Shown: positions 5,520 through 37,975 of the stretch, piece by piece
Numbering within the stretch: position 1 is the stretch's first letter
Layout: every line of letters starts with the position of its first letter
Origin: Kagunavirus LM02P1
Length of the DNA: 43,420 bases
Sequence record: OZ035819.1
Strand: one strand, 5' to 3'
Notes under the pieces: generated by a model
The model's input: only the letters and a program-made list of their open reading frames with translations
What the model was told of the DNA's origin: nothing
Database searches by the model: none
Position numbers and translations under genes: made by a program

Positions 5520-5601
5520 TTGCCTTGCATGTTGGAATAATTTATTCTTGACATGTAAATCCGGGTGGCCCGGGTTCCAACGTCCAGGGGACATACTGAC
5601 T

Positions 5602-6303
5602 ATGAATCGTTTTTTACGTTATCCGTTCCAGGAAGAAGCTGGAGCAGAAGATAAATCAGGTGGCGGTGACGCTCCTAAAATGTACACAGCCGAAGAAGTT
5701 CAGGCGCTGATTGAGAAAGAAGTTGCCGGGCTTAAGGCCAATCAGGAAGCATTGCTGGCGGAGAAGAAAGAAGCCGCTCGCAAAGCAAAAGAGGCCGAAG
5801 AAGAACGGCAGCGCGCACACCAGGAGGCACTAAAAGCCGCTGGTAAGATGGATGAGTTCGAAAAGACGATTCGTAGCCAGTATGACCCGGTGTTAGCTGA
5901 GAAAGACGGTCGCATCTCCAGAATGGCAGAGCGCATCCTCGGCAGCGAACGTAAAGCGGTGTTAGGCTCTTTCGCGGGTGACTTCATTACCCCCGAAGCA
6001 GTAGACATTCTTGCGCCGTTCGTTAAGACTGAGTTTGAAGGTGATGATGTGGTTACTAAGTTTGTCGGCGCAGATGGCAACGTAATCACGACTGACCCGG
6101 AACAGTTCCGCAAATACCTGCGTGAACACAAAGCGTTTTCGCATTTGATTAAAGCAAATGCAGCTTCCGGCGGCGGGGCTTCCGGCGGCAAAGGCGGCGG
6201 GGCCGCACCAGCGTTTAAAGATATGAACGAAGCGGAGCGTTTAGCTCTGTACAAATCGAACCCTGCCGAATTTGAACGGCAACTTAAAGCCCTGAGGAAA
6301 TAA
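5602..6303 (+). CDS. scaffolding protein
   Basis: Coiled-coil, E/K/A-rich sequence immediately upstream of major capsid gene; ATG at 5602 chosen, frame is open from 5548. Confidence 0.55.
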   Translation: MNRFLRYPFQEEAGAEDKSGGGDAPKMYTAEEVQALIEKEVAGLKANQEALLAEKKEAARKAKEAEEERQRAHQEALKAAGKMDEFEKTIRSQYDPVLAEKDGRISRMAERILGSERKAVLGSFAGDFITPEAVDILAPFVKTEFEGDDVVTKFVGADGNVITTDPEQFRKYLREHKAFSHLIKANAASGGGASGGKGGGAAPAFKDMNEAERLALYKSNPAEFERQLKALRK

Positions 6304-22906: not shown

Positions 22907-23088
22907 TTCTTACCATCACTTTTCTTGAAGCTACGTTTTATATCTGGCAGCGTGTAGCATCTCGACTTCTCATATTTCCCGTCAGAGCTTACCAAAACAA
23001 AGCTGTTGCCGTCGTTTGATATGTACTCGATGGTGAAAGTATTGAACGAATGTACGCTGTATATTTCATCGCCAACATTAAGTTTCAT
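22903..23088 (-). CDS. hypothetical protein (61 aa)
   Basis: ATGA-coupled to the helicase gene upstream. Confidence 0.4.
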   Translation of the reverse strand: MKLNVGDEIYSVHSFNTFTIEYISNDGNSFVLVSSDGKYEKSRCYTLPDIKRSFKKSDGKK

Positions 23089-24509
23089 TTCTTACCTCGT
23101 CTCTTCATGTAATTAAGCAACTCTTCCTGTACTGATTTCTTCTCGTCTGTACGCGCGGAAACAACCTCATCCAGCGTGTCTTTAGCGACGATGTGATAGA
23201 GGAACACCGGGCGCTCGTGACCGGCCTGTTTCTGACGAACGGGCCCTATGCGTTCTACAACCTGTAAATAATGCTCAAGGTTCCAGCCTTGCGAAATAAA
23301 CGCCAGATGATGCCCGCCGTCCTGTAAATTCAAACCATGCCCGGCTGACGCAGGATGAACGCATAATATTTCGATTTCACCTCTGTTCCACGCTTCCATC
23401 TGTTTATTACCCTTAGCACCTTTGGCGAACGCCTGTGCCTGCGGGAATCGTTTCAGGATGCGCTCAAGCTCATGCTTGAACTGGTAGGCCACCAGTAACG
23501 GCGCACCCTGCAATTCCTCAACAATGGACTCCAGTGCGTCCAGTTTCGTGTCGTGCACTTTCTCCCAGTCTTTGGTCGCTTCGCCGTCTGGCCCTGACAC
23601 ATACACGGCACCAGATGCAATCTGTAGGCACTTCGACGTCTTCGCAGCGGCGTTAGCCGCTTCAACTTCCCCGCTCTCCAGTTCTGCGAATAGCTTTTCC
23701 TCCATATCGATGTACGCCTGACGTGCTTTCTTCGGCAGGTCAATTTCCACGGGCACGATAATCGGCGCTTCACATCCAAACCACTCGGCAGCATCAATCG
23801 TTAGACTAATGTCCTTCATCTTCTGGTGAATCTCGGTATCCGCTCCCGGGCGAGCGTGATACTCCCGCGCCATCGCGGATTTACCTTTCTGTACCGAGTT
23901 AAACCAGCGGTCGGTGAATGCCGTGTACGACGACCCCAGGCGCTCGCCCGCGTCGATAAACCAGTTCTGACCCCACAAGTCTTTGAGGCCATTTGGCGAC
24001 GGGGTGCCAGTAAGGTTAATGAAACGCTTAACCTTTCCGAATGCCACCTTACTGAGCGCCTTTGCTCGCTTGCTTCCACCAGAACGGCTACGGAATGATT
24101 TCAGCTTCGTGCTTTCATCTGCGACGATAACGGTAAAAGGCCAGTCGTCTTTGCCGTAGTAGTCAATCAGCCACTCGATAACTTCGTAGTTCGTACACAC
24201 TACGTTAGCATCGGACTCAAGCGCCGCGATGCGGCGCTTTTCTGAACCAGTTGCATCGACGACATTCAGGCAGGGGAATTGCCATTTCTCTTGTTCTGCC
24301 GGCCACGTACCGGACGCAACGCGCAACGGGGCGAGGATTAACACACGGTCCTCTTCAGTAAGCTGCCCGTTACGGAACAGTCGGTTTAATGTCCACAGTA
24401 CGCTGCCGGTCTTCCCGGCGCCCATGCTTGCCCATATGTTGCAGCGATGATGTTGCAACATGAACGAAGTCATGAGTTTCTGGTACTCGCGCCTTTGAAA
24501 CTTAGACAT
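23085..24509 (-). CDS. SNF2/DEAD-like superfamily 2 helicase
   Basis: 474 aa; Walker A ASMGAGKT, DExx-type box VIVADESTKLK, C-terminal helicase domain. Confidence 0.8.
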   Translation of the reverse strand: MSKFQRREYQKLMTSFMLQHHRCNIWASMGAGKTGSVLWTLNRLFRNGQLTEEDRVLILAPLRVASGTWPAEQEKWQFPCLNVVDATGSEKRRIAALESDANVVCTNYEVIEWLIDYYGKDDWPFTVIVADESTKLKSFRSRSGGSKRAKALSKVAFGKVKRFINLTGTPSPNGLKDLWGQNWFIDAGERLGSSYTAFTDRWFNSVQKGKSAMAREYHARPGADTEIHQKMKDISLTIDAAEWFGCEAPIIVPVEIDLPKKARQAYIDMEEKLFAELESGEVEAANAAAKTSKCLQIASGAVYVSGPDGEATKDWEKVHDTKLDALESIVEELQGAPLLVAYQFKHELERILKRFPQAQAFAKGAKGNKQMEAWNRGEIEILCVHPASAGHGLNLQDGGHHLAFISQGWNLEHYLQVVERIGPVRQKQAGHERPVFLYHIVAKDTLDEVVSARTDEKKSVQEELLNYMKRRGKK

Positions 24510-25185
24510 GATTAGCCTCGTAAACTGCTTTTGCGAAACCCCGCGGGGTAAGGCTGCGGATTGTTTTTGTCCTCACCGATTTACCGCCTAATTTATTGTG
24601 TTGGTCAGAATACTCATCATCCACAGCAACGACTGACTTAACCGGCATTACGAAACCATTACCTGTCCAAAGACATGTCTTTTTAGGGTACGCGTCCCTC
24701 GGTTTTATGTACTCTGGGAACATTGGATGTGTGTCGTCTTCGGGTAAATAGCCGCCGTATTCGTACGGGTTGAACGTGTAGTCAGGCTTACGCCATAAAG
24801 ACGAAAGAACGCTAACCGGATTCTCAATCATATAGGGCACGTTGTACCTTTTAGCCAGACGCGCCGCCACTTTGCATGTAATCACGGCCTCTACCTGAAA
24901 AGTTGGATTCTTCTTCCGCTTCGTTTCAAAATGCGCCGCGCCGCTAACGGCTAAATCTGTGCACGGAGGGAACGCGAAAATAATATCCGGTGCAACCTCG
25001 AAGTCGAACTTATTATCAATCCACGCGTTTATATAGTGAATGTTCTCGTGTTCAACTTTTGCACCCAATCGCGCGTAGTCGCCGTGGTCGGCGCCGTCGT
25101 AGTTGAAACAATAGCAAGTATGGCCTGCTTCCGCCCACGGTTGGGCCATAAGGCCCGAACCGTCAAACAATGACCAGACAATCAT
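24502..25185 (-). CDS. compact DNA cytosine-C5 methyltransferase-like protein
   Basis: 227 aa; motif I-like LFDGSGL, motif IV-like DIIFAFPPCTDLAVSG (Pro-Cys dipeptide), motif VI-like MIENPV; no obvious target-recognition domain. Confidence 0.5.
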   Translation of the reverse strand: MIVWSLFDGSGLMAQPWAEAGHTCYCFNYDGADHGDYARLGAKVEHENIHYINAWIDNKFDFEVAPDIIFAFPPCTDLAVSGAAHFETKRKKNPTFQVEAVITCKVAARLAKRYNVPYMIENPVSVLSSLWRKPDYTFNPYEYGGYLPEDDTHPMFPEYIKPRDAYPKKTCLWTGNGFVMPVKSVVAVDDEYSDQHNKLGGKSVRTKTIRSLTPRGFAKAVYEANHV

Positions 25186-25668: not shown

Positions 25669-25983
25669 TTATAATTCCTTATATTGTTGGGGTATGTGCT
25701 TACTATAATAGTCTGCTATTAGGGTGTCAATCTGTTTTATCGAACCAACGACAAAAACATTTGCGCCACGTTTGCGCATCCGCTCATGCTCACGTAGCTG
25801 GTGGGGGTCAGGCTTCGTGTTTTCGTCTTTCTTAACCTCGACGAACCAGACGACGCCGCCGGGGAGAATTGCCAGCAGGTCGGGGGCGCCGGAACGCCCC
25901 TCGTAGGAAAGTTTACGAACGAGGCCACCAAGGGCCTCGAATCGCTCCTTTGCATATTTCTGTATTTTGCCTTCCGGGGTCAT
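25669..25983 (-). CDS. VRR-NUC domain nuclease (PD-(D/E)XK fold)
   Basis: Motif GAPDLLAILPGGVVWFVEVK (D...E-V-K core); ATG at 25983 preferred over upstream TTG at 25998. Confidence 0.65.
   Translation of the reverse strand: MTPEGKIQKYAKERFEALGGLVRKLSYEGRSGAPDLLAILPGGVVWFVEVKKDENTKPDPHQLREHERMRKRGANVFVVGSIKQIDTLIADYYSKHIPQQYKEL
25702..25730 (-). promoter_or_regulatory. sigma70-type promoter TTGACA-N17-TATAGT inside the 3' end of the VRR-NUC gene
   Basis: Near-consensus hexamers read on minus strand; would drive 25413..25667 and downstream genes. Confidence 0.5.
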
Positions 25984-26132
25984 GAGCGCAGAACCCAAGT
26001 AAGGAAAGCCCCGCCCAGAACGGCAACACCGACAAAATTAAAGAACAGGCCATAGCAGAACATCGCGGCTATTCCCGCACCGAGTAGAAGTGCGAGCATG
26101 GTTACTATCGTCCAAAATACAAGCATTGTCAT
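25980..26132 (-). CDS. small membrane protein (50 aa, 2 predicted TM)
   Basis: ATG at 26132 with GGAGG RBS; hydrophobic throughout; stop overlaps VRR-NUC start. Confidence 0.35.
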   Translation of the reverse strand: MTMLVFWTIVTMLALLLGAGIAAMFCYGLFFNFVGVAVLGGAFLTWVLRS

Positions 26133-29791: not shown

Positions 29792-30999
29792 TCAGGCCGT
29801 TTGTCGTCTGCCGTTGCAACGCATGGTGCGCCTGGCTTACGGGTGATGAAGTCTTTCAGTTCTTCTTCCGGTATTACTTTAACCGCTTCGGTAGGGGTCA
29901 TGAGCACTTCTTTAGTCAGCTTGTCGCCGTAGAGTTCTGCCACTTTCTCTGCGTCTTTCCACGCACGATTACCCGGCCTGCCTTCAACCAACTTGTACCC
30001 CGGCACTTTCTTACCGGAATGCAAAGCGGCGGCCATAGCTTTCTCAACCTTGTCGATGTGCTGGCGCAACAACGGCAACTTCTCATACTCAGATACGAGT
30101 TGCTCCGGCGTAAGTTCCAGTGCAAAGTCATCTTCCAGTTCTCCGGCCAGTACCGAATTAACGGTTTTTGTACGCGCGGCGCACTGTTCAGAGAACCGGC
30201 ACCACTGACAGCCATCGACCGACGGCCTGAAGTCCGACGCCTTCAGGTTCTTCTTACCGCGGAAATAGGCATCAAGAGCCAACAGCGCGCGTTTCTGGGC
30301 AAACTTAGCGAACAGCTCCAGCCCCTCAGCCGAGATGTCCCACTCCGACGCGCCACCCGCGTACGGCTGGAAGATAACCAGGCGAACTGTTGTTATGTGA
30401 TAACGTCTCTTGAGTCGGCGATAAACACCGAGAGCATAGAGCATAAGCTGTTTGTTTTCTTTCGCTTCGACACGATGCCGCCCTGTTTTAAGGTCGCCAA
30501 TAATTAGCATGTGCTCGTCTGTGTTCGCCAGCTCCTGGACGGCAACAAGGTCGGCGGTTCCGAATGTCTCGACGCCTTCGTAACCTGGATGCAGCACCTC
30601 AGTAAGATTGACGCGCATCTCCAGTTTTGCGTAAGTAGCCACGTCGATAATCGCTTTGCAGTAGTCGGTGTACTTTGTACACTGGTCAATCATGTCCGCC
30701 GTAATAAGTACCGCGCCTTTCATCGGACTGATTAGCGCCTTAATCTGGCCTTTACCCTCATCCAGTACATATGCACCTACTTCACGTGCTAACGGTAGCG
30801 CAGTTCCGCGGATATAGGCATTTAGGTGCACTTCTGCGATTGTATGACATGCGGTCCCTGTAACGGCAGCTTTACCCGATTCGTTAGGAATGTCTTTTTC
30901 ACACGCCAGTGATGCGGCACAGGTAAGCCACTTTTTAGCACCTGATGGCGACAGTAAGGCGTGCACATCGTTATTGCCGCCGCGTTCTTTTAAAATCAT
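29758..30999 (-). CDS. PD-(D/E)XK nuclease, DUF2800/Cas4-like
   Basis: 413 aa; N-terminal LSPSGAKKWLTCAAS motif as I recall for this family; sits between SSB and primase as in many phage replication modules. Confidence 0.55.
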   Translation of the reverse strand: MILKERGGNNDVHALLSPSGAKKWLTCAASLACEKDIPNESGKAAVTGTACHTIAEVHLNAYIRGTALPLAREVGAYVLDEGKGQIKALISPMKGAVLITADMIDQCTKYTDYCKAIIDVATYAKLEMRVNLTEVLHPGYEGVETFGTADLVAVQELANTDEHMLIIGDLKTGRHRVEAKENKQLMLYALGVYRRLKRRYHITTVRLVIFQPYAGGASEWDISAEGLELFAKFAQKRALLALDAYFRGKKNLKASDFRPSVDGCQWCRFSEQCAARTKTVNSVLAGELEDDFALELTPEQLVSEYEKLPLLRQHIDKVEKAMAAALHSGKKVPGYKLVEGRPGNRAWKDAEKVAELYGDKLTKEVLMTPTEAVKVIPEEELKDFITRKPGAPCVATADDKRPEWNRVTEEDLK

Positions 31000-31493
31000 T
31001 TCTCGGCTCCGTTAACTGTAAACCCGTATTTAATTTCGGCTTGCCTACGAGCCTTAGCCGCGTTCTCTAACCTATCGTAAGCACCTAAATAAATTGGCGC
31101 CCCATCTACATAAATTCTGGCGACCCACTTACCAGAGCGTTTATGAAACCCAACGCCTTTAACACCTGAAGCATTGTCAGTCCGTATTTTGGTGCCGTGG
31201 GCGATACTACCTCGTCGCATTTTTATAAGATTTTCTATTCTGTTATCAGTTCTATCTTTATTTGCGTGGCGAATTACTTCCCCTGGCGCTATCTCCCCAT
31301 TAAACATCTCCCAAACCACGTGGTGGATAAGTTTAGTAACCCCGTTAAAACGTAGTATTTTGAATTCACTTCCGTCGTTATCCACCCTCACACTCCCAGC
31401 TTCTTGGCCTATTTTTACCGATTTTGATGGTCTTATCTTCCAATACAATTTCCCTGTGACAGGGTCGTAGTCAAACAGTTCATGCCAATTCAT
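30996..31493 (-). CDS. HNH homing endonuclease with C-terminal AP2 DNA-binding domain
   Basis: HNH region HHVVWEMFNG...IRHANKDRTDNRIENL; AP2-like region GVKGVGFHKRSGKWVARIYVDG; ATG at 31493 with GGGAGG RBS; locally AT-rich by eye. Confidence 0.7.
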   Translation of the reverse strand: MNWHELFDYDPVTGKLYWKIRPSKSVKIGQEAGSVRVDNDGSEFKILRFNGVTKLIHHVVWEMFNGEIAPGEVIRHANKDRTDNRIENLIKMRRGSIAHGTKIRTDNASGVKGVGFHKRSGKWVARIYVDGAPIYLGAYDRLENAAKARRQAEIKYGFTVNGAEK

Positions 31494-31762
31494 ACCCTGA
31501 CCTCCCACTGGTCGATTAAATGCCGTGTCTTATGGTCACAATGCATCGCCCAGCTATACATCGACTCGAAGACATAAAAGTCACTTTTAACGAAAGTCGT
31601 GCGCTTAATCTGCGACAGGTGACGGCCTATATCTTTCGGCTTTGGTACTTTGCCTAAGAACGCCATCTCTTCCATCTGGTGCGCACCCGACGGCGCACGT
31701 AACAGCCACAACACCTCTGTGTTATCCCGGCGGTCGATGCCGCGGTAGAGTTGGTAAATCAT
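31490..31762 (-). CDS. hypothetical protein (90 aa)
   Basis: Stop overlaps HNH start (ATGA coupling). Confidence 0.4.
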   Translation of the reverse strand: MIYQLYRGIDRRDNTEVLWLLRAPSGAHQMEEMAFLGKVPKPKDIGRHLSQIKRTTFVKSDFYVFESMYSWAMHCDHKTRHLIDQWEVRV

Positions 31763-37122: not shown

Positions 37123-37251
37123 ATGAAAGATTATAGCGAAGTGACTTTAGGTGAGTTGCAGGGCGAGTACGAAGATATGCTCTACCCGTTCATCTGCGAC
37201 GGAGATTACAACGGCGTCTATAACGGAGTGAGCGAAGAATATGAACACTAA
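37123..37251 (+). CDS. small acidic protein (42 aa)
   Basis: ATG at 37123 after conserved leader/RBS. Confidence 0.3.
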   Translation: MKDYSEVTLGELQGEYEDMLYPFICDGDYNGVYNGVSEEYEH

Positions 37252-37975
37252 AAACGAAGTATTCGAATACCTGATTGACCAGCTATGGCATCAGGTAAAT
37301 AAGAAAGATGTCACATCTTTCAATGTGTCTGTGCGGATATCCGACCTTGATGAGGTCAAGCAGGTAATTCACAACCTACAGCAGCATATCGCTGGTAAGG
37401 ACGACGAAATACGTATGCTGAAAGACAGCCTACGGCAGCAGATGGCGAACAACCCCCACAAGCAGCAGTGCGAAGACCTGGCGCATGAGGTGCAGTCACT
37501 TAAGAATCAGTTACGTGATATGTCGGAATTGGTGGATGAGTTGATGGGTACAATAACGTTAATGAATGAAGACTTTGGCCGCGTAACAGGGCGGAGCGGT
37601 CCTTTACCTAAAGGGGAGAGCTACGTAGTAGGTGAGCACGGGCCTGAGCAATCCGGTTGCCGTAAGGGAGATACTCAGGAATGCGAGCACTCTTGGATTA
37701 TTATGCCTGGGTTGTTTCTTAGCGAAGGCAATCCGAACAACGTTCCTGGTAGTGAGTTATGCTGTAAATGTGGTAAGCGTGAGTGGGATGTTAAGGGATA
37801 TAAACCGAAAGATGATACCCAGGAATGCTCCTATAACTGGCGATTCGTTAATGGTAAGGCTCCCGCCGTATGTATTAATTGCGGAATGACTAAATCCAGC
37901 AAGTGTGAGCACGAATGGTGCTTTTACGATGGTGGTGCTTTGAAGATGTGCAGAATATGCGGGCTAAAGAAATGA
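37241..37975 (+). CDS. coiled-coil protein with three C-terminal zinc-ribbon-like repeats
   Basis: 244 aa; three units of C-x-H/Y-x-W ... C-x-x-C-G (CEHSW...CCKCG, CSYNW...CINCG, CEHEW...CRICG). Confidence 0.55.
   Translation: MNTKNEVFEYLIDQLWHQVNKKDVTSFNVSVRISDLDEVKQVIHNLQQHIAGKDDEIRMLKDSLRQQMANNPHKQQCEDLAHEVQSLKNQLRDMSELVDELMGTITLMNEDFGRVTGRSGPLPKGESYVVGEHGPEQSGCRKGDTQECEHSWIIMPGLFLSEGNPNNVPGSELCCKCGKREWDVKGYKPKDDTQECSYNWRFVNGKAPAVCINCGMTKSSKCEHEWCFYDGGALKMCRICGLKK

Follow-up and report, generated by a model that had tools for sequence, protein, structure and literature searches.

A minimal Dcm-like DNA cytosine-C5 methyltransferase gene in Kagunavirus LM02P1

The genome sequence of Kagunavirus LM02P1 (sequence record OZ035819.1; the window analysed here is the whole stretch of 43,420 nucleotides) holds a gene on the minus strand whose product is, by its sequence, an ordinary representative of a phage family of minimal "Dcm-like" proteins (PHROG 757) that is large, annotated, and in part characterised; the gene is in that sense already known. 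The protein is very probably an active orphan DNA C5-methyltransferase, a reading to which a probability of about 85% is assigned. It builds on the family membership, fold, residue conservation, and selection of the methylase, all of which were established in the present analysis.

24502–25185, minus strand: minimal (Dcm-like) DNA cytosine-C5 methyltransferase gene, a complete open reading frame (ORF) with an ATG start, 227 residues

PHROG 757, named "DNA methyltransferase", matches residues 1–226 of the protein with an E-value of 2.7e-88, and of 50,697 phage records searched by tblastn, 1,521 contain a homologue, among them those of Escherichia, Klebsiella, Salmonella, Vibrio, and Arthrobacter phages and of an archaeal virus. 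The resemblance to methyltransferases is not due to chance. The family comprises more than 7,800 matching clusters at 90% identity, and an exhaustive search yielded 1,273 clusters at 50% identity; among the matches listed, almost all measure 210–260 residues. The annotations of SZH-1 (another Kagunavirus) and of the Salmonella Jerseyvirus LP31 already name the gene "DNA cytosine methyltransferase". A preliminary description of this gene, made from the letters and translations alone, had called its product a minimal C5-methyltransferase-like protein without an obvious target-recognition domain (TRD), which is correct; only 34 residues stand at the TRD position of this 227-residue protein. It had further regarded 227 residues as short for a canonical C5-methyltransferase. 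This is true, but the whole family is uniformly short (approximately 210–260 residues), so the length is a stable family trait and not a sign of truncation. A search of the methylase against NCBIfam gave no match.

The longer members of the family include three of 401–453 residues and one of 348 residues, and some carry N-terminal extensions of approximately 175–200 residues with no Pfam match. When ten longer members were scanned with Pfam for a fused DNA-binding domain, one HNH insertion was the only result. In one longer member, an HNH_2 endonuclease domain occupies residues 250–298, C-terminal to the best-matching methylase stretch (residues 32–168).

The sequence anatomy of the protein was established by counting residue conservation over 113 diverse family members, and by aligning the family with hhalign to M.HhaI alone and to a profile of 80 HhaI homologues (the HhaI sequence being identical to that of PDB entry 10mh). 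The following elements were delimited:

25150–25170, minus strand: motif I, LFDGSGL (residues 6–12), the S-adenosylmethionine (SAM)-binding loop after strand β1, aligned by hhalign with FAGLGG of M.HhaI
24955–24972, minus strand: motif IV, FPPCTD (residues 72–77), with the catalytic Cys75 (codon 24961–24963), aligned by hhalign with GFPCQ and Cys81 of HhaI
24814–24825, minus strand: motif VI, ENPV (residues 121–124), aligned by hhalign with ENV of HhaI
24691–24768, minus strand: family-specific conserved segment of 26 residues between motifs VII and VIII (residues 140–165), PYEYGGYLPEDDTHPMFPEYIKPRDA
24661–24690, minus strand: motif VIII-equivalent strand, YPKKTCLWTG (residues 166–175), placed by conservation and by a strand at residues 170–175 of the AlphaFold2 model
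24559–24660, minus strand: stretch of 34 residues at the TRD position (residues 176–209), with FxMP and LGGKS..TK elements, placed by the alignment and the AlphaFold2 model
24523–24558, minus strand: motif IX-like C-terminal element, RSLTPRGFAKAV (residues 210–221), after which the protein ends within six residues

Residues kept in at least 103 of the 113 members are G21, P73, C75, G82, K89, A100, E121, N122, P123, and R132 in the N-terminal part, and P140, D164, Y166, K168, T170, W173, P181, R210, P214, and G216 further on. The three motif strings reported in the preliminary description (LFDGSGL, FPPCTD, and ENPV) are all found in the translation, although the first of them is only partly canonical, since of the two glycines of FxGxG (FDGSG here) the last one, Gly11, is alone conserved throughout the family and the first is variable. 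The catalytic cysteine, whose lack of conservation had been named there as part of what would refute the reading, is conserved, Cys75 being present in 111 members. In motif VI, the glutamate is kept in 112, the asparagine in 106, and the proline in 111.

The family-specific segment at residues 140–165 has highly conserved P140, G145, Y146, and D164, while its residues 149–162 are deleted in about a quarter of the members; it is put forward here as a candidate DNA-contact element. In the strand equivalent to motif VIII, at least 108 members share each of Y166, K168, T170, and W173. K168 is kept in 109, and K169 is less conserved (K in 56 and R in 20). Within the stretch at the TRD position, P181 is present in 108 members and L199, G200, and G201 are moderately conserved; LGGKS is weakly placed by hhalign on the TRD loop YGGG of HhaI. 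At the C-terminus, R210, P214, and G216 each recur in no fewer than 105 members, and RSLTPRGFAKAV resembles motif IX (R-x-L-x-P-R-E-x-A-R), being set by hhalign, with weak statistics, on RKLHPRECARVM/GYP of HhaI. Altogether, hhalign lines up motifs I, IV, VI, and VII (DYxF...EYGG), the motif VIII strand, and the F-x-(F/M)-P that follows it with their HhaI counterparts, at very low probabilities.

An AlphaFold2 model built from a 56-sequence alignment reached a mean predicted local distance difference test score (pLDDT) of 92 and a predicted template modelling score (pTM) of 0.90, with the lowest pLDDT at residues 176–209 (block mean of 68). The catalytic domains of DNMT3A and DNMT3B are the top PDB matches of this model in Foldseek, and the predicted structure has the catalytic-domain fold of C5-methyltransferases. 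In the viral structure library BFVD, the closest Foldseek entries are proteins of the same family named "DNA-cytosine methylase". The minimal fold also matches a domain inside the long phage proteins A0A6J5SE15_1 (1397 residues), A0A6J5NPY6_2 (1126 residues), and A0A8S5V6E6 (1154 residues), one of the long proteins being named "Helicase/UvrB, N-terminal" and one "DNA polymerase". These long proteins may be methylase–helicase fusions reminiscent of DNMT5.

The gene is also maintained by selection. Among the orthologues of LM02P1, SZH-1, phiWAO78-1, and LP31, pairwise ratios of nonsynonymous to synonymous substitution rates (dN/dS) range from 0.04 to 0.16, with dS from 0.35 to 0.76, a pattern of strong purifying selection that marks a functional gene and rules out decay.

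The best understood relative is Dcm from phage K42. In four mutants of this phage that escape the retron Ec86, the lesions all fall within, or immediately upstream of, a gene of 711 bp designated dcm (10.1101/2023.08.16.553469; other authors cite the published version as Cell Rep 2024;43:114857). Expression of K42 Dcm harmed cells only if they carried Ec86, and liquid chromatography coupled to mass spectrometry (LC-MS) revealed a gain of 5-methylcytosine (5mC) on the multicopy single-stranded DNA (msDNA) of Ec86, which was lost in a C82A/E128A/K175A/K176A mutant (10.1101/2023.08.16.553469). Mutation of either cytosine of the CCTGG in the msDNA stem-loop abolished the defence by Ec86 (10.1101/2023.08.16.553469).

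K42 is 95% identical to the BASEL phage KarlJaspers (Bas06, MZ501090), whose gene bas06_0055 is also 711 bp long, is annotated as "Dcm-like C5 cytosine methyltransferase", and encodes Cys82, Glu128, Lys175, and Lys176; gene length and these four residues match those of K42 Dcm. The LM02P1 methylase is 58% identical to the product of bas06_0055 from end to end (E-value of 7e-99), and its C75, E121, K168, and K169 correspond to C82, E128, K175, and K176 of the K42/KarlJaspers protein with a constant offset of 7. Both proteins thus share family, architecture, residue spacing, and the C-terminal element RSLTPRGFA(K/R)AV, the LM02P1 protein being nine residues shorter. Unlike the gene of KarlJaspers, which belongs to the Drexlerviridae and lies among small ORFs, that of LM02P1 is found in the Guernseyvirinae and overlaps an SNF2 helicase gene. 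Because of this homology, the LM02P1 methylase is expected to make 5mC, by analogy with K42 Dcm, the only member of this comparison in which methyl transfer has been demonstrated.

A second relative is gp52 from Pantoea phage AAS23, 54% identical to the LM02P1 methylase. Its authors obtained an HHpred probability of 99.7% to the Shigella C5-methylase structure 3ME5, and the DNA of AAS23 was reported to be Dam- and Dcm-methylated on the basis of a restriction panel that included EcoRII, HhaI, and Csp6I. Among the three roles considered in the preliminary description (an orphan anti-restriction methylase, a DNA-modification enzyme of another specificity, or an inactivated remnant), the first is the best supported, as a 58%-identical relative makes 5mC and a 54%-identical one is found in a phage with EcoRII-resistant DNA.

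Several observations weigh against an active C5-methyltransferase acting at CCWGG. Pfam PF00145 is matched below threshold (16.4 bits, the cut-off being 22) and over residues 3–100 only, and sequence searches of the PDB, both with the single protein and with the 56-sequence family profile, gave no match at E-values up to 10; for this reason, the link to C5-methyltransferases was taken from structure. The canonical QxRxR of motif VIII is replaced by a conserved DAYxK(K/R)T, with Lys168 and Lys169 at the arginine positions, and motif X (GNxV) is not detectable by hhalign or by Pfam on C-terminal fragments, ten of which, from diverse members, gave nothing. In the alignment to motifs VIII–X suggested in the preliminary description, the motif VIII strand aligns without QxRxR, motif IX is suggestive with weak statistics, and motif X is not placed. 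With regard to the target, the retron study assumed CCWGG by analogy with E. coli Dcm (10.1101/2023.08.16.553469). In the same study, msDNA from dcm+ MG1655 with an empty vector had little 5mC, and K42 Dcm was noted to be toxic itself (10.1101/2023.08.16.553469), which would also fit a different or a broader specificity. The EcoRII resistance of AAS23 could come from the host Dcm, and in the BASEL study the methyltransferase genes of Drexlerviridae bore no straightforward relation to restriction resistance. Finally, the observed/expected ratio (O/E) of CCWGG is 0.74–0.78 in Kagunaviruses with the gene and 0.68–0.71 in those without it, a comparison that is uninformative because these genomes are too closely related.

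The differences from well-known C5-methyltransferases follow the same lines. M.HhaI has approximately 105 residues between motifs VIII and IX, compared to 34 in the phage protein, and the LM02P1 methylase lacks both its QxRxR and its GNSV motif X. E. coli Dcm (M.EcoKDcm), at 472 residues, includes a complete TRD and all ten motifs besides an extension at its N-terminus. The phage enzyme would share its chemistry and probably its CCWGG site, as suggested by the inference of the retron study and by the EcoRII resistance of AAS23. However, with 227 residues and no sequence match to solved C5-methyltransferases, it is not a Dcm orthologue, and the name "Dcm-like" reflects its presumed specificity only.

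By analogy with these relatives, CCWGG is favoured as the target, with a confidence well below that given to the activity itself. The support is indirect and comes from the msDNA mutants, the EcoRII resistance of AAS23 DNA, and the composition of the genomes. The LM02P1 genome contains 87 CCWGG sites where 118 are expected (O/E of 0.74), which is a mild avoidance, and 10 GATC sites where approximately 151 are expected (O/E of 0.07), which is a strong one. In KarlJaspers, which carries Dam-like and Dcm-like genes, neither site is avoided (O/E of 1.00 for GATC and 1.03 for CCWGG), whereas many 6-bp palindromes are wholly absent and CCSGG has an O/E of 0.17. No Dam gene was found in the LM02P1 ORFs scanned or in the SZH-1 annotation, and the scarcity of GATC looks, from composition, like restriction-site avoidance where the phage carries no protective methylase. 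Sibling Kagunaviruses show the same avoidance of GATC (O/E of 0.03–0.07). Some 6-bp palindromes are also scarce in LM02P1 (AAGCTT, 0 of 10.9 expected; TGGCCA, 1 of 9.6; and AGGCCT, 2 of 13), and CTAG has an O/E of 0.37.

An active C5 DNA methyltransferase with a specificity other than CCWGG, which with almost no TRD might read a shorter or degenerate site, is an unlikely alternative. The presence of only 34 residues in place of a TRD would fit it, as would the low msDNA 5mC left by the host Dcm of MG1655 set beside the high level and the toxicity of the phage enzyme (10.1101/2023.08.16.553469). On the other hand, the defence lost upon mutation of either cytosine of the msDNA CCTGG (10.1101/2023.08.16.553469), the Dam and Dcm methylation assigned to AAS23 DNA with a panel that also held HhaI and Csp6I, and the sparing of CCWGG together with avoidance of CCSGG in KarlJaspers all argue for CCWGG. 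A literature search found no genome-wide methylome for a phage carrying a PHROG 757 family methylase. It is tentatively proposed, as a rather doubtful possibility, that the family represents the smallest natural sequence-specific DNA C5-methyltransferase (approximately 227 residues), reading its site by an undescribed mechanism, or else that its true specificity is not CCWGG. Candidates for such site reading are the insert at residues 140–165, the LGGKS loop, or a DNMT3-like dimerisation.

The methylase gene overlaps a gene on either side, to both of which it is probably translationally coupled:

23085–24509, minus strand: SNF2-family helicase gene, downstream of the methylase gene, with a PF00176 SNF2-related domain (51.9 bits)
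24502–24509, minus strand: overlap of 8 nt between the methylase stop and the helicase ATG, ATGTCTAA
25182–25373, minus strand: ORF of 63 residues upstream of the methylase gene, function unassigned, its stop sharing 4 nt (ATGA) with the start of the methylase gene

A Pfam scan of the upstream ORF gave no match. The preliminary description had presented the methylase as coupled to the SNF2 helicase gene; the physical overlap of 8 nt stands, but it reflects a lineage-specific synteny and not a functional module. The overlap is conserved in Kagunavirus and Jerseyvirus, while in the Drexlerviridae the methylase gene has small ORFs as neighbours, as it also does in the rV5-like phage SSE121 and two other contigs, where genes for a DnaB-like or PIF1-like helicase or for DNA polymerase A are close by. 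Since K42 Dcm works alone and other gene contexts exist elsewhere, the coupling is regarded as the operon architecture of one lineage.

The possibility that the methylase and the adjacent SNF2 helicase form a functional unit in the manner of DNMT5, with the translocase providing DNA engagement to a TRD-less methylase, is highly improbable. The matches of the fold within the long phage proteins, one of them with a helicase name, are a weak hint in its direction. However, plasmid-borne K42 Dcm on its own suffices to methylate msDNA and to set off the retron (10.1101/2023.08.16.553469), the methylases of the Drexlerviridae, SSE121, and the two other contigs do not adjoin an SNF2 helicase, and the Kagunaviruses BUCT789, Henuyfy11N, and EF2-1 all keep the helicase without the methylase, for which tblastn across their whole genomes gave no match. 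Directly beside the helicase, the annotations of BUCT789 and EF2-1 show a small ORF (approximately 64 residues), the counterpart of the 63-residue ORF upstream of the methylase gene in LM02P1. The lack of the gene in these three siblings indicates that it is accessory.

Transfer of a group other than methyl, such as carboxymethyl from Cx-SAM as in phage CmoX with the product of host CmoA, has very little to recommend it. CmoX (PDB 8yf3) is defined by an SPPC motif and by a conserved arginine where motif X of HhaI has Asn304 (PMC12783734). The LM02P1 methylase has FPPC instead of SPPC and no detectable motif X; its position 219, which aligns with motif IX, is variable (R in 27, K in 22, and Q in 13 members); neither a CmoA-like nor a ligase gene turned up among the LM02P1 ORFs scanned or in the SZH-1 annotation; and the product identified by LC-MS for K42 Dcm was 5mC (10.1101/2023.08.16.553469). 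With the SPPC motif, the fixed arginine, and the partner genes all missing, a CmoX-type carboxymethyltransferase was rejected.

Equally hard to credit is that the protein is what remains of a full-length C5-methyltransferase after decay and loss of catalysis, or else that it is a DNMT2-like RNA methyltransferase, and both readings were rejected. Purifying selection (dN/dS of 0.04–0.16), the conservation of Cys75 and Glu121 in 111 and 112 members, and the uniform length of the family refute the inactivated remnant suggested in the preliminary description.

For the active orphan methylase, the chemistry can be sketched from the family. The target cytosine would be flipped out of the helix, Cys75 of motif IV would attack its C6, Glu121 of motif VI would contact the base, Lys168 and Lys169 would stand in for the arginines of motif VIII, and C5 would receive the methyl group of SAM. 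As there is no separate TRD, sequence recognition would have to come from a very small surface, for which residues 176–209 and 140–165 are the candidates. The most likely target would be the inner cytosine of CCWGG, as for the host Dcm, and its methylation would shield the 87 CCWGG sites of the genome from EcoRII-type restriction. Such protection, which is inferred for LM02P1, would matter notably in hosts without dcm, or where replication of the phage runs ahead of the host Dcm. Neither McrBC nor McrA is known to act on C(5mC)WGG. The activity would also carry a cost, because the retron Ec86 (Eco1) senses methylation on its msDNA and aborts the infection, and LM02P1 would be expected to trigger it likewise. 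This cost could explain the absence of the gene from closely related phages, and its loss in the siblings under Ec86-type sensing is plausible.

In its wider context, the source genome region has approximately 89–92% DNA identity to Kagunavirus coliphages of the Guernseyvirinae, such as AV104, SZH-1, and hz69, and the gene order with both overlaps (helicase and upstream ORF) is identical in SZH-1 and LP31. The methylase gene lies inside a leftward operon of replication genes, in which the genes for the DNA polymerase and the VRR-NUC protein are upstream of it. A consensus scan, which gives pattern matches only, placed the following signals:

29528–29500 and 25730–25702: promoter-like sites
22764–22745: strong terminator-like hairpin

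Other ORFs of the window were also considered. The ORF at 25669–25998 (minus strand) is annotated in relatives as a VRR-NUC domain protein or a Holliday junction resolvase; it gave no Pfam match at E-values up to 0.01, and its listed TTG start is probably upstream of the true start, as relatives annotate 315 bp. The DNA polymerase of LP31 (positions 1–1904 of the LP31 sequence) is annotated as intein-containing, and the Pfam matches of the 775-residue polymerase of LM02P1 are of the family A polymerase and exonuclease types only, with no intein domain listed. An ORF of 170 residues at 30996–31508 (minus strand), with HNH_3 (E-value of 9.9e-14) and AP2 domains, looks like a homing endonuclease. 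It is flanked by a PD-(D/E)XK/DUF2800 nuclease gene and a homologue of a "13.88 kDa late protein", and the corresponding interval of the SZH-1 annotation has no gene of its size or name. The ORFs at 37241–37975 (plus strand, 244 residues) and 5548–6303 (plus strand, 251 residues) gave no Pfam match at E-values up to 0.001.

The gene can be named with confidence as that of a phage Dcm-like DNA cytosine-C5 methyltransferase. From this assignment, the virion DNA of LM02P1 is predicted to carry 5mC, probably at CCWGG, and the phage is predicted to be sensitive to the retron Ec86/Eco1. How an enzyme of 227 residues achieves specificity without a TRD is a question for the whole family rather than for this locus. 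If the family does represent the smallest C5-methyltransferase, its DNA-bound structure would set out a new and minimal way of flipping a base and reading a sequence.

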